Virus record (IMG/VR): IMGVR_UViG_3300013132_000064
Location: 1 to 53,707 of that record
DNA: 53,707 nucleotides
From: a virus
Lineage: Duplodnaviria > Caudoviricetes
Strand: one strand, 5' to 3'
Shown: in pieces, positions 8,214 through 22,145 of the stretch
Numbering within the stretch: position 1 is the first letter of the stretch
Layout: each line of letters begins with the position of its first letter
Made by a program: the position numbers and the translations under genes
The notes under the pieces: generated by a model
The model's database searches: none
What the model saw: only the letters and a program-made list of their open reading frames with translations
Told to the model about the DNA's origin: nothing

Positions 8214-8699
8214 TTATACCTCTTCCAGAGTTAGCGATACATCCCAAAATTCTTGAGCAGGGTCTGCGGTTTTACCCTTAACATTTCTTTTTACTACTGT
8301 AAAATTACAAGAAGTAAATACAGCCAAAATCTCATCGTCTCTGTCTACCGTATTGCTCCCTACAACTTCTTTACCATAAACAATTTTTACTTTAAATGAA
8401 GATCTCCCTTTTGACGCAAGGGCATAATACTCTTGTATATCTACTGCTCCCCATCCTCCGTCTACTGTAAGACTTGATCTTGACGGAAGCATTCTCCAAG
8501 AAACACTAACAGACTTTTTATCAGCCACCCAATATTTTCTTAAGAATCCATTTGCCATTCTTTGAGATTTTTCAATTCTATTTATGTTTACGGAAGATGG
8601 CTCTCTGTTATGCTCTGAGATTTTTTGCCACGTTGGAGTAGAGGTTGAAGATGTATCAAAATATATAAGGGAGCCTACTGGCAAGAATACTGTTGACAT
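8214..8699 (-). CDS. Distal tail (Dit-like) protein
   Basis: 161 aa immediately after the TMP; RMANG-LR...K-S-SW and a terminal WDVSLTLEEV strand. Confidence 0.7.
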   Translation of the reverse strand: MSTVFLPVGSLIYFDTSSTSTPTWQKISEHNREPSSVNINRIEKSQRMANGFLRKYWVADKKSVSVSWRMLPSRSSLTVDGGWGAVDIQEYYALASKGRSSFKVKIVYGKEVVGSNTVDRDDEILAVFTSCNFTVVKRNVKGKTADPAQEFWDVSLTLEEV

Positions 8700-11600
8700 T
8701 AGCTATTACTTCTCGGCAAGCCAAGGCGAGCCAAGTCCTTTCTTTGTAGATCCACAATATATCTTCCGATATCTTCCTTAGACATATTCTCAGGAATATT
8801 ATATGTATTTTTTATTTGCACTACTGTAGGGCTACCTACGGCGGCTGCTTGATTCATTGTACCATTTCTTAGTGAATTAATATAGTCTGTATCGTAGACT
8901 CCTTCGGTTCCTGCCCTTAATATTGCTCCAACCTCTTGTCCATAACCTCCAGGAACAGCGCCATTCCAGTCATGGAACTTTCTAATTTCCCCAGCATACC
9001 CTCCCATTGCCATCTTCATAATATCAAATGGTCTCTTTGAGAAATCAGATATCTTTTTAAATCCGACTCCAGCTCCCTCAAAAAGAGATAGAATATCATA
9101 TCCCTTATCCTCTAAAACATTTGCGTATGTATTTCTTGAGTTTGCGGTAATTTTACCCAGCCATCCGCCTCTGTTGACTATTCCTTTTACTCCAACATCC
9201 TTTAGTACATTAGCCAGATTAAACCAAGCATATGGATTTAATCTAGATGTTGTTTCAGCTACAACTTCCCCTGCTGTGCCCTCTGCTTTTAATGCCCTTA
9301 GCAGGTGTTGATAATGCTCAAATTTTCTTCCTGGCAGTGCTAGCTTAGAAGGATTATTTAATGCGGCGCTAACCAATGCTTTGTACGCATCTGGGTTTTG
9401 AGAGAAAATGCTTGGAGCATTATGTCTTAAATCTATTACTTCGCTTGGCTTTAGCTTAGCAAATATTTCATATAGGTTTGATGTTTTGCCACGTGATAGC
9501 AATTCAGATCCAAACATTGATGCAGTAGTAATGTCGTCAGTAGCAAAGAACTTTCCTCCAAGCCATCCACCAGAACCTCCAGATCTGGCTGTGTCTAAAA
9601 TACCTTGCTCTAAATTTCCTCCATGGAACATTCTAGAAGATAAAAATTCCTCTAAAGATTTACTAGATGCAAATCCAGGCATATGCAAAGTATCTTTCAT
9701 TTTTACTGGGTTTCCAGTAAAAGGCAATTCTATTTTTGAAGAAAGCAGGCTTTCAAAGGTGCTTGCTTTGGGAGCCTCTATTGCAGCTTTTGCAACTTTA
9801 CCTGGGCCTGCGAAAGGAATGGCGGCCATTGCAAGATTTGCATAATCTCCCTTAGTTCCACTTCCACGAATTATTTCTGATACTCTTCTAACTAGGTCTG
9901 AAGTCATTAACTTATGCATCAATGGATTATGTATTCCCAGAACTTTTTCTGTGATTCCCAAAGATGCCAAGGCGTACATTTGTAATGCATTTAATCCCTT
10001 GCTAGAAGCTCCAGCAGCCATTCCCATCGCATGAGGAGCCGAGCTATAATTTACTGATCCGCCACCTTTAAGTTTCTTTGCATTTAATGCATCAAAAGTT
10101 TCTTTACCGTAGTGATCTACTGCTGCTGCACGTATTACATATTCCCCATCAGACAAATATGCTGGAATAGAATCAGATGTAGAAGTACCTGGGCCACTAA
10201 CTCCTCCGCCTGGCCCGTAATACTGTACCTGTCCACCAGAAGCCAACCTTTTAACGGTAACCCTATCTCCATTTACACTTGTTACTTCGTAGCGCTTTCC
10301 ACTAGTTGTACTAAATTGCGTTCCTTTAATTGGAGTAATGTCTGCATCTTCTAAAGCCTTTACATTTGTTTGGTAAACTGGAACGCCGCCAGCGCTACCG
10401 CCCTTTATGTTCTTATCATCTAAAGGCTTTTGAGTTGCGCCTGCGAATAGAGCAACTGCAGCAGCGAACGCATCAACAGAAGATTTAAATTGTGCATTTC
10501 CTCCTACTTGCTTATTAAGAGCATTTACAAGGCCCTGCGCCCAACCCATTTGATATACACTATCGCCTTGTCCATATGCGCTACGCATACTTCTTGCCGC
10601 AGTTTGAACTTCTATTGGCGAATCTTCGTCTAACATTTCTGCAAAAATAGTAGAAATTTCTTGTGCGTCTGCTCTACTCATTATATTTTTGCCAAAATTA
10701 CGTAAAGCAATTTCTTCTAATCTATCTCTATAGCTTTCGAGTTGAGCCAAGTCTGCTGCTTTTTGAGTAGCATTTGCTGTTTTGGCATTATAAGAATCTT
10801 GAGCTTGCTTTAATTCTTTTTGCAAATCCTCAATTCTTTTTTCTAACTTATCAATTTTTGTATCATAAGTATCATTAATCTTGTCTCTAGTAAGCTGTCT
10901 TTGTCTATCTGCAACTAATTTTTCTATGGCCAGCTGTTCTTGTGCTGCAAGAGCTAGGTCTCCTGTGGCTACTGCTTGACTGTATCTAATTTGTGCTTGA
11001 GATAACTGGACCTCATACGTTTGGGCCTGCTCTTGAACATCTAGAGCTTTAAGCCTTGCAGCCCTTTCTTCTTGCAATGCTTTTATTGTTTTTTGAATAT
11101 TGTCTATTTTATTCTTATAATAATCTTCGTCAACCTTTTTTAATTTAGCAACTACGTCCTTGGCATCTTTAGCCTCTTTCTTAACTCTTGCAATTATATT
11201 GGCCAAAGGTAATAGTGGGTTTTTAGATCCTTTCGATGTATCTTCAGTAACTGAATTCATAACATTCTGCACAATTGCCAAATTCTTTGCAAATGCTGCT
11301 GCCTGCTCTGCCCCCATGGCAGCTAAGTTTACGATTTCTCCAAATCCAGCCTGATAAAGCATTATCTTTGCTGTAATGCTTTCTATTGTTTCCGCTGCTC
11401 CTAGTATTGCACTATAAATTATATTTTCATTTTTTAACGCTTCAAGATTATCTTCAGATATTTCTTTTTGTGCGCCCTTCATCTTGGAAATTTTTTCCAT
11501 AGTTAATTCAAGGGCATCTGCTTGATCTAGAATATTTTCATTTTCATCTTTTGTTCCTACCAGAGCATCCTTATATATAATGATAGAATTTAATAAAGTG

Positions 11601-14600
11601 TCTAGGCCTCTGTTGAATTCTTCTGCATTGAAGTCTTCGCTCTCCAATTCATTTTTAAGAGCTTTAATAAGCATAGAGATTCCGCTTACAGAATCTGATA
11701 TTGAGGTAAAGTCTTTTGATGTAATTGCAGCTAAAGCCTGTCCCGCCTTTTCTGAAGCTCTAATAATTGCATATATTTGATTTGTAGCTTCTTGGGCCGA
11801 CATTCCCATAGCAACAAATTGAGCCTTAATTTGTGCAGCATATTCAACGACTCTACCAGAGTCTATGTTGTTAAATGCCTCTACATAATCTTGTTGATTT
11901 TCTTTAGCATTTTTTATTGCGTCTCTTAACTCTTTTATTGTAAGAGTTAAACCAGGGGTTCCTGTTCTTGTGTAAGACTGGTAAGTTGATTTTACTTTAG
12001 CCCTATGTAATTCTAGCTTTTCATTTATGTCTTTAATACGATCAGACATCTCTTTATATTTTTTAATTCCTACTGAGCTAAATGAATCTTCAGTTCCGCC
12101 AAAAGCTAATCTATTTGCTTTTCCTGCTTCCTCTGCCGACTTTTTCCAGGAAATCAGTCCTTTTACAATTAAGGTTATTGCAGTAATGACTAGGCCAGGA
12201 ATGGTCAAAGATTTAAGTATTTTAAATAATCCTCCAGCAGAAGTAGATGCAGCTTTTAATCCCATGATAATTTGTGGCAAGAAGGAGCCTGCAATTCCTC
12301 CTACAATTGAACCCATTGAGCCGAAAGAAGATCCAACCATACTTCCGCCAAGTCCGCCAACCATTCCATATCCAAGCATTCTTCCCATGCCCATGCTCTT
12401 TGGTCCTGGCCCAGGGACAACATTGCCGTTCTGTATATTTAAAGGCATGGAGGTTGGGCCTGGAAGATATCCAGACATTCTTAATCTATCTGATATGCGT
12501 GGCCTATAAGATGTGGAAGGAGGAGTTACAATTGGTGTTGGATAAATTGGAGTTCCACCAATACCCATAGTTGCTTGACTTGCTCTTCTATCTGTTACTG
12601 TATATCCTGGTCTTTGATTATCTCCATAAAATCTTCTTCCTCTTCTGACCGTTCCGCCAGCACGAGTTCTTCCAACCCTTCCGCCTCTATTAAAGCTGTG
12701 CTGAGCGGCCTTTTGATAAGAAGAATACAAAGCACTAATTTCTCTTGACATTGCATCATCAACTATATTTCCCCACTTAGTTTCCGATAATGGCTTATCT
12801 CCAAGCTTTGTCATTGCTTTATTTACTCTGCCTAGAGTACGTGATGCTGCTCTATATGCTACCTTATACGGGACTCCTGAATTTGTTAGATGAGAAATTA
12901 AAGAAATTAAATGTTCTGGACGTCTTGATGATTGCAACCACATATTTCCTGTGGCTGAACCATTTCTTAAAGCAGCATTAAAATCTTTAGTAATTGTTAT
13001 TAAATTATCTGGCAGCAATTGATATTTTTTAGATGCGGTTGCTCCGCCTGGCATAGTTCCAAATCTTTGTTGTATTTGAGCTCCTGTTAATATTCTGCTG
13101 GATCCTTGCATTGGGAATCCAGAAAGAGATCTTAAAAATCTACTAGTTATTACATGACCAAGAACTTCATTTTGATTACGCTCTCCAAATCTTATTGAAC
13201 TATCCCAAGCAGATCCAGATCTTCTATATAAAGCATGATAAGGAGTCGGACCGTATGCTACCCCTGGATCAAATACTCTTGGAGAATTGCTTGATCTGCT
13301 GCCAGATGCACCTGTGTCATAAAATCTTCTTGCTCCACGGGCTATATTTGGATTCCATTGAGTTAGTCCAGATAAAATTCTTTGTATCGCACCACCAGCA
13401 AATCTATTTTGAACTGGAACAACCATTGCTCTACCTTCATTAAGAGCTCGCATTCCATCTGGATCCTGTTGCGCTACATCTTTGCGGATAACAAATTCTC
13501 CTGGAGTAAGCATTGCAGGAACTACATCTGCATTTACATTAGGACCTGGAACCTGGTCTCCGTCATTATAAAATACCTTTCCGCCATCATTAAATTTAGG
13601 AAGTCTTGTTACTTCTATAGAGTATGGTGCTCCGTAAGTTCTTATTCCACGAAGACGGCCAAACTCTTCGAGCACTCCACGACTAGACCCCCTCTTAAAC
13701 ATATCTCGTAAATTATATTTGCCTGAAGGGTCTGTAGCAGGTTGATCTATTAGTGGAGCTTTTCTAGGATCAAACGGAAGTCCACGAAGAGCTGCGTATT
13801 GAGCAAGCTCTGCAGTCATTTCTGCATCTATTTGAGCATTAAGCGCAAGAATTCTAGCTCTAGCTTGGTCTACAGTAATTTTAGCAGCACGAAGCTCTGC
13901 TACTATAGCTGCAGATTCATTAGCAGCTTTTGTTGCAAATTTTGATGTTATGGGCAAAAGATCATCATATGTATTTAAAAGATCGGAATTTATTGTTCCG
14001 CCAAGAGCAACTGTTTTCTTGATTACTTCAACTTCTTGTTGAGTTCTCATAGAAAGTGTTCCCATTAATGCATGGAATTTTGCTGCTTCTTGAGAAACTA
14101 TTCCTGTTGAAACTCCTCCAATAGAAGTTAATCCTTCTATATTAGGAAGCCTATCATGCATGTAAATTTGTGGCGCTGCGCCTATTCTTTGATTTACTGG
14201 AATAGCTCCTGGAACTACTCCAAATATTCCACCAGAAGCAAATCCGCTCTTTCTTGGATTTATATGAGAGAACGCTCTAGTTCCTTCTTCTCCAACAAGA
14301 GGATGTGTCGGATCCACATATCTTCCAGAACCGCCAGGCATAAGAGTACTTCCTGCTAATGTGCTTATTGCTGGGCGGACAGATATGTTTCCATTATTTA
14401 CTGCAGTTTGTAAAAGATTAAATTCATCTACTAAATTTCTTAATGCTTGTTCCAATATAGCTGCAGCTTGAGCATCGCTATAGAATGTGTCTCCTAGTGT
14501 CTTGGCTGCATGCTGTGCTGCAATAATTTCTGGGGTGAGCATCTTCCAGCCCTTAGATCCAGCAAACAAGGATTTTAGATTAGTTGCTCCTTTTAATATA

Positions 14601-16294
14601 TATCCAGCAAAGTTTGCCAAAACACCAGTTAGCATAATTATTGGTCCAGCAATTGCTGTAAAGCCAGCAAAAGCAGTAATTAATTTTTTAACAGGATCTG
14701 GTAAGCGATTTAAAAACTTTAAAAGCTTTGTTACAATATTTATAAATTTTGTTCCTATATCAAGAAACTCTTCTCCAAGCGTTGACATTTCTGCTTTTAA
14801 AGATTCTATGGCTCTTCTGTATTGTCCAGAAGCTGAATCGGTGACTGCTGATAATTCTCGACCCGCCAATTCCTCCAAGTCTCCAGCACTTGCTTTCATT
14901 AAATCTAAAACTTGTAAGGTTTGGCTGCCTTGCTTTCCAAGGTTTTCAAATAACGCATTTAGTCTTGAAAACTGAAACTTACCAAACAATTGTTCAATAG
15001 CCTGTTGCTTAGATAAAGGATCTAATTTATCTAAAGCTGCTTGTAATGCGAATAGGGTAGCGGTTGTATCTCCAGCATTATTCTTTACTATTCCTAATAA
15101 ATCTATTCCGAATCCTTCAAACTTTTTTACCGCCACATCTGTTGGGTTAATTAAAGATGCCAATGCTGACTTTAAAGCATTTGCTCCTTCAGATGCATTA
15201 ATACCGCCTTCACGCATAGCTGTTAAATAAAGAGCAAGATCTTGTATACTTCCGCCCAATCCTTTAATTACTGGTCCAGCTTTTGGAATTGCTTCAACAA
15301 GATCATTTAGCGTTGTTGATGTTTGGTTTTCAACTGCGTTTAAAAAGTTGATAGATTCAGATAGCTGATCTGTGTTTTGCTTAAATGCACTCTGTATAGC
15401 TAGAGTTGCTTTCATAGCTTCTTGACGATCTACTTCGCCAAGTACAGCAAGCCTTGTTGTTTCTTTTAATGAACCTAAAAGATCTTCGCCAGTTTTCCCA
15501 GTAGCTGCGATATCAGCAGCCAAAGAAATGGTTTCTTTAAAGTTAACCCCCATGGTTGTTGCTAATTCTTTAGAGGTCTTTGTTATTTCCGCTCTTACAG
15601 CTCCAAGCTCTTTTGCAGTAGTGCCACTTACATCTCCATAAACCTTAGTAAGTCTTACAAGCTCTTGATCGGCTTCTCTAAATGCTTTAGCAGCCGCTGC
15701 GCCAAATGCGGCAATAGGAACTGTTAGTCCTACCGTTAACTGACGTCCAGCCCACTGAGTATTCTTACCCCAGTTGATAAGAGAGGTGGCGCCTTCATTA
15801 ATTGCACGATTCATTATTTGCAATTCCATGTTGGCTAGTTTTGTTTTATTTTTTATTAAATCCAGTCCTCTTGGAATATGAACTTCATACTGCATGAGGC
15901 CTTGAGCATTTCTGCCCAATGGTTGCATAACAGCATTTTGTAGCATTACTTGCTGTCTAGCTAAGTCTCTTATTAATCCGCCACTTGTTTTAGCATGTTG
16001 CTGAAATGCTGAGTAAAAATCTCTAAGCTTTAGTCTTCCAGCGTCTAATCCTTTTCCAAATTTTTCTACATCGGAATGTAAAGTAACAAAGTGAGACCCG
16101 AATTGCCCAGTGCTTCTTAGGGTTTCTCCAAATGAATTGTTTATTACTTTTACTTGAGATGCTACTGTTTTACCAGCAGAAGATAAACTTTGCTGAAGGT
16201 TTTGTAAACTAGCCGTAGCCCTGTGCACTTCAGACACAAGGCTAGACAGATCTGCTCTGGCGACTATATTAGTTATAATCTGCTCGTCGGCCAT
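8699..16294 (-). CDS. Tape measure protein (2531 aa) with internal cargo-like domains
   Basis: TP901-type TMP core (Ala/Leu helical; ETTRLAVLG, GINASEGANALKS), hydrophobic segments, coiled coils and a GPGTSTSDSIPAYLSDGEYVI motif; follows the tail chaperone genes. Confidence 0.95.
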   Translation of the reverse strand: MADEQIITNIVARADLSSLVSEVHRATASLQNLQQSLSSAGKTVASQVKVINNSFGETLRSTGQFGSHFVTLHSDVEKFGKGLDAGRLKLRDFYSAFQQHAKTSGGLIRDLARQQVMLQNAVMQPLGRNAQGLMQYEVHIPRGLDLIKNKTKLANMELQIMNRAINEGATSLINWGKNTQWAGRQLTVGLTVPIAAFGAAAAKAFREADQELVRLTKVYGDVSGTTAKELGAVRAEITKTSKELATTMGVNFKETISLAADIAATGKTGEDLLGSLKETTRLAVLGEVDRQEAMKATLAIQSAFKQNTDQLSESINFLNAVENQTSTTLNDLVEAIPKAGPVIKGLGGSIQDLALYLTAMREGGINASEGANALKSALASLINPTDVAVKKFEGFGIDLLGIVKNNAGDTTATLFALQAALDKLDPLSKQQAIEQLFGKFQFSRLNALFENLGKQGSQTLQVLDLMKASAGDLEELAGRELSAVTDSASGQYRRAIESLKAEMSTLGEEFLDIGTKFINIVTKLLKFLNRLPDPVKKLITAFAGFTAIAGPIIMLTGVLANFAGYILKGATNLKSLFAGSKGWKMLTPEIIAAQHAAKTLGDTFYSDAQAAAILEQALRNLVDEFNLLQTAVNNGNISVRPAISTLAGSTLMPGGSGRYVDPTHPLVGEEGTRAFSHINPRKSGFASGGIFGVVPGAIPVNQRIGAAPQIYMHDRLPNIEGLTSIGGVSTGIVSQEAAKFHALMGTLSMRTQQEVEVIKKTVALGGTINSDLLNTYDDLLPITSKFATKAANESAAIVAELRAAKITVDQARARILALNAQIDAEMTAELAQYAALRGLPFDPRKAPLIDQPATDPSGKYNLRDMFKRGSSRGVLEEFGRLRGIRTYGAPYSIEVTRLPKFNDGGKVFYNDGDQVPGPNVNADVVPAMLTPGEFVIRKDVAQQDPDGMRALNEGRAMVVPVQNRFAGGAIQRILSGLTQWNPNIARGARRFYDTGASGSRSSNSPRVFDPGVAYGPTPYHALYRRSGSAWDSSIRFGERNQNEVLGHVITSRFLRSLSGFPMQGSSRILTGAQIQQRFGTMPGGATASKKYQLLPDNLITITKDFNAALRNGSATGNMWLQSSRRPEHLISLISHLTNSGVPYKVAYRAASRTLGRVNKAMTKLGDKPLSETKWGNIVDDAMSREISALYSSYQKAAQHSFNRGGRVGRTRAGGTVRRGRRFYGDNQRPGYTVTDRRASQATMGIGGTPIYPTPIVTPPSTSYRPRISDRLRMSGYLPGPTSMPLNIQNGNVVPGPGPKSMGMGRMLGYGMVGGLGGSMVGSSFGSMGSIVGGIAGSFLPQIIMGLKAASTSAGGLFKILKSLTIPGLVITAITLIVKGLISWKKSAEEAGKANRLAFGGTEDSFSSVGIKKYKEMSDRIKDINEKLELHRAKVKSTYQSYTRTGTPGLTLTIKELRDAIKNAKENQQDYVEAFNNIDSGRVVEYAAQIKAQFVAMGMSAQEATNQIYAIIRASEKAGQALAAITSKDFTSISDSVSGISMLIKALKNELESEDFNAEEFNRGLDTLLNSIIIYKDALVGTKDENENILDQADALELTMEKISKMKGAQKEISEDNLEALKNENIIYSAILGAAETIESITAKIMLYQAGFGEIVNLAAMGAEQAAAFAKNLAIVQNVMNSVTEDTSKGSKNPLLPLANIIARVKKEAKDAKDVVAKLKKVDEDYYKNKIDNIQKTIKALQEERAARLKALDVQEQAQTYEVQLSQAQIRYSQAVATGDLALAAQEQLAIEKLVADRQRQLTRDKINDTYDTKIDKLEKRIEDLQKELKQAQDSYNAKTANATQKAADLAQLESYRDRLEEIALRNFGKNIMSRADAQEISTIFAEMLDEDSPIEVQTAARSMRSAYGQGDSVYQMGWAQGLVNALNKQVGGNAQFKSSVDAFAAAVALFAGATQKPLDDKNIKGGSAGGVPVYQTNVKALEDADITPIKGTQFSTTSGKRYEVTSVNGDRVTVKRLASGGQVQYYGPGGGVSGPGTSTSDSIPAYLSDGEYVIRAAAVDHYGKETFDALNAKKLKGGGSVNYSSAPHAMGMAAGASSKGLNALQMYALASLGITEKVLGIHNPLMHKLMTSDLVRRVSEIIRGSGTKGDYANLAMAAIPFAGPGKVAKAAIEAPKASTFESLLSSKIELPFTGNPVKMKDTLHMPGFASSKSLEEFLSSRMFHGGNLEQGILDTARSGGSGGWLGGKFFATDDITTASMFGSELLSRGKTSNLYEIFAKLKPSEVIDLRHNAPSIFSQNPDAYKALVSAALNNPSKLALPGRKFEHYQHLLRALKAEGTAGEVVAETTSRLNPYAWFNLANVLKDVGVKGIVNRGGWLGKITANSRNTYANVLEDKGYDILSLFEGAGVGFKKISDFSKRPFDIMKMAMGGYAGEIRKFHDWNGAVPGGYGQEVGAILRAGTEGVYDTDYINSLRNGTMNQAAAVGSPTVVQIKNTYNIPENMSKEDIGRYIVDLQRKDLARLGLPRSNS

Positions 16295-21092: not shown

Positions 21093-22145
21093 TTAAGAAG
21101 CGACCTTAACGTTCTTTACGACTACCCATGCATCTGCCTGCTCAATTTGGGTTCCAACACGAGTAAATAGTGTGTACTCGATGGAGTCCTTCTTTGGCCA
21201 GAAAAAGCGATAAACGGTGACGTCACGCTTGATTCCAATAACAACGTTATTTGGGAATGTCAAGTGAACATCTCCATGGGTGCCTGATGCACCTGAATGT
21301 GTTCCTGTTTGGGTTTCGTTGAGTAGTGGGACTTCAACAATCGGAATACCGAATGCGAATGGTGCCACATATCCTGCTGGTCCACCTAGTGGTGCAACTC
21401 CGCCACGGATAACGCTTGATGCGATATCTGATGGAATTGTTTGGTTTGTTCCAATGCTGTTAGCATATAGGAAGTCCTGAATTAGGTTTGATCCTGCAAG
21501 GAAGCGAAGATCTCCACGGCGTTGCTTGTACTTACGTGGCAAAGCCTTAAGAGCCTTATTGAATACCTCACGAGAAACTGTAGCTCCCGCTGCGTCTACG
21601 ACGTGTGCGCTAGCCTTAGCCTTCTTAACAATTCCATCGAAGGACTTGTAAAGAAGATCTGTGGTTTGGGCTGTATCTCCATTGAGGATAACATCTTCAA
21701 TGTCGTTACCTGCTTGAGTTGCCATCAAACGTGCAATATGATCTTCGAGATCAGCACCTTCGATATTGTCCTCAAGTGACTCTGTTGAAAGCTCCCAATC
21801 CATGCGGAGTTTCTTTGTTGTTAGAGAAATCTTGGAGAATGTAACACCTGAGTTTGCACTGTTGGTGTTATCTCCTTCGCTAGCGAGCTTCATTAGCTTC
21901 TCGCCTACTGACATACGATCAATCTCGGTTGTGTCAGCTCTCATACGTACTGTACGTGCGACTTTACCGATTACGGTTGCGTCGAACATATAGTCAAGGA
22001 AACGAGCAGATTGCTCTGGGTTTAGGAGACCTCCGTTTCCGTTTTCGGAAGCACGGTGTACTCCAGTTCCACCAGTGGTGGATGCAAATGTACCTGTTAC
22101 TGTTGAGCCTGCCTCAGCAGCTTTTTCTAATAGTTCATTGCTCAT
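21093..22145 (-). CDS. Major capsid protein (HK97 fold)
   Basis: GGLLNPEQSARF, ELSTESLEDNIEG, ILNGD and DGIVKKA motifs; follows the protease/scaffold gene and is followed by a terminator. Confidence 0.92.
   Translation of the reverse strand: MSNELLEKAAEAGSTVTGTFASTTGGTGVHRASENGNGGLLNPEQSARFLDYMFDATVIGKVARTVRMRADTTEIDRMSVGEKLMKLASEGDNTNSANSGVTFSKISLTTKKLRMDWELSTESLEDNIEGADLEDHIARLMATQAGNDIEDVILNGDTAQTTDLLYKSFDGIVKKAKASAHVVDAAGATVSREVFNKALKALPRKYKQRRGDLRFLAGSNLIQDFLYANSIGTNQTIPSDIASSVIRGGVAPLGGPAGYVAPFAFGIPIVEVPLLNETQTGTHSGASGTHGDVHLTFPNNVVIGIKRDVTVYRFFWPKKDSIEYTLFTRVGTQIEQADAWVVVKNVKVAS

Follow-up and report, generated by a model that had tools for sequence, protein, structure and literature searches.

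The ADP-ribosyltransferases (ARTs) that phages are known to inject are carried in the head, as in the case of T4 Alt and of predicted polyvalent proteins (PMC5512222). In the accessible part of that paper, ART-PolyVal (PF18760) is the ART domain of phage and plasmid polyvalent proteins, with its prototype in the virion RNA polymerase (vRNAP) of Roseovarius Plymouth podovirus 1 (RPP1), and is defined by a His in strand 1, a Tyr in strand 2 and an Asp in strand 5 (Iyer et al. 2017, PMC5512222). Virion lysins are embedded in the tape measure proteins (TMPs) of phage tails, among them TM4 Tmp, T5 Pb2 and the TMP of phiIPLA35 (PMC6116005). Here, we describe a TMP with an inserted cargo cassette whose core domain is probably a remote ART-fold relative of ART-PolyVal, as judged by profile alignment, model fold and language-model neighbours. 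Its gene (P0001, positions 8699-16294) lies in IMG/VR record IMGVR_UViG_3300013132_000064 (Caudoviricetes), a 53.7-kb viral contig with an estimated completeness of 48%; the whole stretch that was analysed, positions 1 to 53,707 of that record, is referred to below as the window, and every feature placed in it, like every one of its long open reading frames (ORFs), is on the minus strand. The sequence family of the core is new, and so is the carrier context in which this known kind of domain is found. Literature searches gave no description of a TMP-borne ART, although papers on polyvalent proteins might list such cases in their supplementary tables, and the words "tape measure" do not occur in PMC5512222 and PMC9503650.

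The locus resembles several described systems and coincides with none of them. Like ART-PolyVal, the core domain is phage-borne and lies within a virion protein of very large size that is released from the particle upon infection, but the carrier is a TMP instead of a polyvalent protein that is packaged in the head and has MuF or metallopeptidase domains (PMC5512222). It shares with the TMP lysins the placement of a putative enzymatic domain within a TMP, and CHAP, lysozyme, LysM and OmpA domains occupy the same slot in relatives of P0001; lysins, however, act on peptidoglycan outside the cytoplasm, whereas an ART-type domain depends on NAD+ and would therefore have a cytoplasmic site of action. 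T4 Alt is likewise a virion-delivered ART, active before phage gene expression, but it is a member of the R-S-E clade and an independent protein packaged in the head (PMC5512222), and it is unrelated in sequence to the window core. The Sle1-type effectors of actinobacterial contractile injection systems have a TMP-like carrier with exchangeable C-terminal domains, one of them a toxin, although the machine is a cellular contractile injection system and not a phage tail (PMC13277306); the likeness is a conceptual one. Finally, polymorphic toxins of the PT-TG type (PF14449) also pair a conserved carrier with cassettes that vary at its distal end, and a junction motif recurs before some of the cassettes. 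They differ in that the PT-TG model does not match the P0001 segment, and the cassette is internal, unlike a toxin tip, because a conserved tail follows it; no immunity gene is evident, the ORF directly downstream of the TMP gene having only a match of unknown function.

The cargo slot of the tape measure protein

P0001 is a single open frame of 2531 aa and is a TMP. PhageMin_Tail (PF10145) matches aa 239-438 (14981-15580) with 103.6 bits against a cut-off of 33.2 (E 1.7e-29), and PHROG tape-measure families match with E values down to 4e-119. BLAST of P0001 against five relatives (L030, L031, L032, L047 and L068) delimits an inserted block at aa ~2085-2481 (8852-10042). Upstream, the slot is bordered by the GE2 block (aa 2016-2077, 10064-10249), named for the second IPAxLSxGEYV motif of the protein (IPAYLSDGEYV, aa 2043), which is kept in relatives. 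Downstream lies a conserved C-terminal tail (aa 2482-2531, 8702-8851), of which aa 2482-2529 are 56-60% identical to the final ~46 aa of both L047 and L068. Because the gap between GE2 and the tail is 397 aa in P0001 versus ~15 aa in L047 and L068, the block is an insertion. The closest relatives, L030 and L031 (2162 aa; 79% identity over aa 1-954), and L032 as well, end ~100 aa past GE2 and have no cassette. The segment is almost certainly a cargo cassette in a variable TMP slot. An earlier, sequence-only reading of this DNA had recognized an insert near the TMP C terminus, which is real, but it slightly understated the size of the block; the strings it quoted do lie inside the TMP as it said (LKGGG at aa 2075, nt 10072; GDYANLAM at aa 2149, nt 9850; MFHGG at aa 2222, nt 9631; NLYEIFAKL at aa 2273, nt 9478; GVKGIV at aa 2368, nt 9193; MAMGG at aa 2428, nt 9013).

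We surveyed the slot in related TMPs gathered by a scan with aa 1-600, which returned at least 592 related viral contigs, and took the best 80 of these (67-85% identity over aa 1-600), 43 of which hold a complete TMP; the complete related contigs are ~108-116 kb. The complete TMPs are 1918-2318 aa long in 35 of 43 cases and at least 2501 aa in the other 8, and most of them have nothing in the slot after GE2. Where cargo was recognized by Pfam, it consisted of CHAP plus LysM (L045, L097 and P0002), Phage_lysozyme2 (L090 and P0003) or OmpA (P0003 and P0009), and the slot of L085 holds 1218 aa with no Pfam match. The ART-like core is present in 3 of the 43 complete TMPs. The sequence-only reading had suggested checking related TMPs for an exchange of this segment among enzyme folds, and such an exchange is seen: the slot holds CHAP plus LysM, lysozyme, OmpA or nothing. 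The arrangement of variable distal cassettes on a conserved carrier, by which polymorphic toxins are recognized, thus also describes the TMP slot. Two sub-threshold Pfam matches were seen in addition, to a GNAT acetyltransferase in the post-GE2 region of L097 (E 0.0024) and to an ABC1 kinase-like domain at aa 3118-3156 of P0009 (E 0.0034); if real, these would be further cargo of a cytoplasmic type.

The cassette is tripartite. A junction module (aa 2078-2175, 9770-10063), ending in GSGTKGDYANLAMAAIPFAGPGK, is followed by the ART-PolyVal-like core domain with its helical sub-insert (aa 2210-2420, 9035-9667), placed by family alignment, AlphaFold2 model, Foldseek, ESM Atlas and hhalign, and then by a GE3-like block (MAMGG...GAILRAGTEGVY; aa 2421-2481, 8852-9034). 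The junction module is 51% identical to aa 2759-2852 of P0002 and similar to aa 605-689 of P0003, its core motif recurs in P0009 and P0013, and a second junction form (GQGxxGD) is found in P0002, P0004, P0009 and P0012. It is absent from the best 80 of the at least 592 TMP loci, 43 of them complete, which is a further difference from the PT-TG toxins. The sequence-only reading had taken this stretch for a PT-TG pre-toxin motif, an identification that we could not uphold: Pfam scans of the segment in three cuts gave noise, with no family matching aa 2075-2427 at E<=10, and PF14449 had no match in the window DNA at the same limit. The GE3-like block is 58% identical to aa 977-1050 of P0003. Since P0003 has both the junction module and a GE-like block in common with P0001 while its middle differs, the flanks are conserved and the centre is exchanged. 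In an hhalign comparison, the middle of P0003, which contains GLGTYFTTNPNIAKSFA, itself aligns to the profile of ART-PolyVal (E 2.5e-4, probability 43%); aa 690-977 look like a truncated ART-PolyVal-like piece (GLGTYFTT...AKSFA) with FKG in place of HG.

Contigs from other sequencing runs bridge both cassette borders, which rules out an assembly chimera. A contig of run X3 (10,762 nt) spans 8300-10700 with 3 differences, and this run may itself be a source of this DNA; a contig of run X2 covers 8360-10215 with none; and a contig of run X5 (20,832 nt), from another study, differs by 93 substitutions over 2.4 kb and is a natural ~96% variant that bridges the cassette. X5 also has an in-frame 6-nt insertion at window position 10388, in the TMP upstream of the cassette. 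The ten sequencing runs listed with this DNA are all labelled lake or freshwater metagenomes. GC and GC3 give no foreign composition signature in the cassette, and the only direct DNA repeats at its borders are two short imperfect pairs, which we take to be chance.

The TMP gene stands in a siphovirus tail module. Upstream, the gene for an Ig-domain tail protein is accompanied by two small ORFs, of which one is tail assembly chaperone-like; directly downstream is a 161-aa ORF (8214-8699) whose sole match is phrog_1194, of unknown function, and the minor tail genes follow. No tRNA genes were found in the window. Within the C-terminal 514 aa of P0001, the GE2 block alone has a relative of solved structure, aa 964-1013 of TMP gp16 (PDB 8zdo/8zdq, E 3e-15). 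A second variable region lies at TMP aa ~965-1300 (12395-13402), where relatives align up to aa ~950-1000 and resume at aa ~1200-1360; Pfam and PHROG searches of this region gave no match, and ESM Atlas matches to aa 965-1205 were weak and mostly to unnamed viral proteins, including one cluster with the polyvalent-protein-associated domain LPD38 (score 0.89, at a low recognition of 1420). The major capsid protein (21093-22145) has matches in 230 phage records and is 57-61% identical to the capsid proteins of ~130-kb Streptomyces phages despite the window G+C of 38.7%. Among TMP relatives L121-L131, whose contigs are binned into metagenome-assembled genomes, 5 of 11 loci carry Bacteroidota-type labels, the best (69% identity) being Bacteroidia, and others are labelled Acidimicrobiaceae, Methylococcus, Aquiluna and Rhodobacteraceae. 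These are probably phage contigs swept into bins, and the labels are at most a weak hint to the host.

A probable remote relative of ART-PolyVal

The core domain belongs to a very small family. A phmmer search of 1.84 billion representative proteins returned 9 at E<=0.001 including the query, with matches divided between junction and core, and two profile searches added 8 further proteins (P0010-P0017), so that 13 other proteins with the core domain were found in total; no Pfam domain covers the core in any of them. Fifteen viral-contig loci encode the core, all of them ~350 aa before the end of a giant ORF (3303-3706 aa in 14 cases, the remaining one being cut by the contig end), and 14 of the 15 are clearly TMPs, with 39-62% N-terminal identity to P0001. 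One of these TMPs (L029, 3303 aa) has, besides its main copy at aa 2943-3144, a weak extra domain match upstream at aa 2280-2385 (i-E 4.7e-4). The window core is a divergent singleton with 17-29% identity to the other members. His2224, Gly2225, Gly2226, Leu2228, Phe2250, Ala2258, Asp2288, Arg2290, Gln2299, Leu2335, Arg2351 and Gly2377 are nevertheless invariant in the family alignment. In the X5 variant, the comparison being partial in that it lists 40 of 89 differences, 26 fall in the TMP (15 synonymous, 11 not), and those within the core domain number 15, of which 9 are synonymous and 6 are not, with the invariant residues untouched; this pattern is a rough sign of sequence constraint. Direct searches were less productive: tblastn found no match in 50,697 phage records, whether the query was the segment or the last 933 aa, a search of viral contigs with the single segment gave no related loci, and a protein search with the RPP1 ART domain gave no homologues, which we attribute to word-index limits.

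Three kinds of comparison connect this family to ART-PolyVal. By profile, we aligned the 13-sequence family to a reference set of 14 ART-PolyVal domains drawn from phage records and viral contigs; the 10 of these that were scanned with Pfam all match PF18760, 8 above the cut-off and 2 just below it (L011, 30.0 bits; L012, 26.7 bits). The local hhalign score was 37.75 (E 3.4e-5, probability 72%) and was reached by none of 100 column shuffles (mean 9.4, sd 2.2); the global score was 30.46. By structure, AlphaFold2 models the core as an α/β domain with a large helical sub-insert (pLDDT 65.9, pTM 0.69), contrary to the "non-helical" insert of the sequence-only reading. The top match of this model by Foldseek in BFVD is a "large polyvalent protein" (E 4.5e-5), one of three below 1e-3, and proteins named for ART-PolyVal stand at ranks 15, 17, 22, 24 and 28. 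A model of the P0012 domain (pLDDT 67.1) finds the same top BFVD target (E 2e-3), with ART-PolyVal names at ranks 11, 13 and 21. By protein language model, the top three ESM Atlas clusters (0.94, 0.92 and 0.92; recognition for the core, 2460) carry PF18760, as do 16 of 30 matches, with 192 of 256 features in common. DUF3990, an ART-clan family, touches one family member (E 0.2) and also some PF18760 members. Profile and fold similarity to recognized ART-PolyVal members is thus present but moderate. One candidate for the reference set, L006 (crAss-like phage NC_055901.1, 12893-13924), which matches the ART-PolyVal start, was left out for stops in frame, of which its best frame has 8 under table 11; these suggest stop-codon recoding in that phage.

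The aligned motifs are collinear in the two families. Global hhalign pairs HGG with YHGT, FFAT with G-x-[YFW]-[FL]-T and GVKGI with G[YF]DG, which places an HG in strand 1, an aromatic-[FL]-T with a following helix Ala in strand 2 and a G-x-x-G-I in strand 5. Spacing is matched as well, the distance from the Thr to the helix Ala being +6 in both, and the core shares the point of its helical insertion with some PF18760 members (L009, L111 and L119). His2224 (FHGG; codon 9623-9625), invariant in 13 of 13 sequences, aligns with the strand-1 His of YHGT. At the strand-2 "Tyr" position, the invariant Phe2250 (codon 9545-9547) aligns as F58 with the [YFW] column, so that the Tyr by which the domain is defined (PMC5512222) is present only in a conservative sense. 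In ART-PolyVal itself, this column holds Phe in the RPP1 prototype, L004 and L008, Trp in three sequences and Tyr in others. Phe2250 is therefore not a sign of decay, a possibility that the sequence-only reading had raised. That reading had overlooked two other residues, Lys2370 of GVKGIV (codon 9185-9187), which in the global alignment falls on the catalytic Asp of strand 5 in G[YF]DG, and Asn2374 (codon 9173-9175), which is His in the other 12 of 13 family members. By alignment, then, the strand-5 Asp of ART-PolyVal appears to be missing from the window copy.

Proposed function and alternatives

We tentatively favour, as the best available explanation, that a three-part cassette, made up of the junction module, a divergent ART-fold domain of the ART-PolyVal type and the GE-like block, recombined into the variable slot that the TMP has past its second IPAxLSxGEYV motif and before its C-terminal tail, and that its ART-type domain is delivered to the host and acts on NAD+. 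A TMP occupies the tail lumen and exits the virion at the start of infection, and siphovirus TMPs are held to form a conduit through the envelope at that stage (PMC7824862). If the cassette part is ejected with the rest of the protein, the domain would consequently arrive before the DNA at the host envelope or in the cytoplasm. The delivered effector for host takeover that the sequence-only reading proposed is a putative one. On arrival, given access, the domain would most likely bind NAD+, and a host target may be modified by mono-ADP-ribosylation or NAD+ depleted by cleavage, through a non-canonical site of His2224, Phe2250 and Lys2370 in place of the Asp. To judge from these residues, the chances that the domain is catalytically active on NAD+ are somewhat short of even, because the catalytic acid is missing in the window copy.

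What weighs against this explanation begins with the homology. PF18760 did not match the window core, the window DNA or the 13 family members at E<=10 (threshold 31.2 bits), or any of 10 related records at E<=1, with the RPP1 prototype scoring 41 bits as positive control; the core lies below all Pfam thresholds, and the curated model does not place it in PF18760. PHROGs gave nothing below E 0.2 on four pieces of the protein, PDB sequence searches with the segment and the family profile gave nothing relevant over the core, and Foldseek against the PDB found nothing below E 0.3 (best 0.35), with the ART-clan enzyme Tpt1/KptA appearing weakly (E 0.8-4, TM ~0.16-0.2) and no match to solved PARP/diphtheria-like H-Y-E ART structures. 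Model quality is mediocre (pLDDT 65.9 and 67.1), with TM-scores of 0.3-0.45 and rmsd values of 8-14 Å, and the core and P0012 models are not independent because both rest on one shallow alignment. In global mode, 3 of 100 column shuffles reached the real hhalign score, in a heavy-tailed null with an sd of 21, and an earlier run against an 8-sequence ART set reached only E 0.022, the earliest, against one ART sequence, giving 0.038 (in shuffles for the early runs, 1 of 150 local and none of 150 global reached the real score). The failure of curated models, the insignificant PDB matches and the low TM-scores would all fit a new, non-ART α/β domain in which HG, FFAT and GxKGI are chance resemblances and the structural and language-model matches are false positives, and shuffled proteins can also gather uniform family matches in the ESM Atlas. 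We regard this as improbable, since three different methods converge on ART-PolyVal, the motifs are collinear with equal Thr-to-Ala spacing, no local shuffle reached the hhalign score and the helical insertion point is common to three PF18760 members. Of the ART assignment made by the sequence-only reading, then, the remote relation stands on hhalign, BFVD Foldseek and ESM Atlas, while a match to the PF18760 model is absent.

Granting the descent from ART-PolyVal, transfer chemistry may have been lost, leaving an ART-fold pseudo-enzyme that serves the TMP as a binding module for NAD+ or a nucleotide, or for a host or tail-tip protein. Replacement of the strand-5 Asp by Lys2370 points in this direction, the position being Lys in the window and 7 of 13 family members and Asp in 6 of 13 (VIDTIAH type), P0012 and P0014 among them, as do departures at near-invariant columns that are found in the window copy alone (His to Asn2374 and Tyr to Phe2261, beside Pro to Glu2229) and the apparently truncated remnant in the P0003 slot with its FKG for HG. 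Against such a loss, HGG and several polar residues are invariant over 13 very divergent sequences, synonymous changes predominate among the listed differences of the X5 variant, and PF18760 sequences themselves vary at the Asp, with Thr in L119 (50.2 bits) and Lys in L011 (30.0 bits); we hold a pseudo-enzyme to be rather unlikely, though it is the rival that we take most seriously. A further difficulty for action on NAD+ is that all slot cargo recognized above Pfam cut-offs is directed at the cell wall, which has no NAD+. Together with the established TMP-borne lysins (PMC6116005), this would suit an envelope-acting or structural cargo that helps the TMP to cross or anchor in the envelope, the ART resemblance being functionally meaningless. 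The core, however, shows no similarity to hydrolase families in Pfam, PHROGs or the PDB, and ART-PolyVal is the only consistent signal, so that this role seems to us as improbable as a chance resemblance.

Implications for tape measure proteins

With the ART-type reading of the domain as a starting point, we speculate that the C-terminal end of the TMP in a large clade of freshwater siphoviruses is a modular injection platform, a tail-lumen counterpart of the head-packaged polyvalent proteins. Such a platform would carry both wall-degrading modules and cytoplasm-acting enzymes, the ART-like family being one of the latter and the sub-threshold GNAT-like and kinase-like pieces perhaps others, and the ART-like family, marked by His-Phe-Lys or His-Phe-Asp, would add a new branch to the ART superfamily, with a chemistry or target of its own. 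That all of these propositions hold together is doubtful. The enzymatic TMP domains known so far are, to our knowledge, cell-wall lysins. If a TMP does carry an ART-type domain, long non-contractile tails would be able to send effectors meant for the cytoplasm down the tail lumen before the DNA. Natural variants of this slot, from empty through lysin to ART-like with Asp and ART-like with Lys, provide a comparison set for TMP cargo and its destination.

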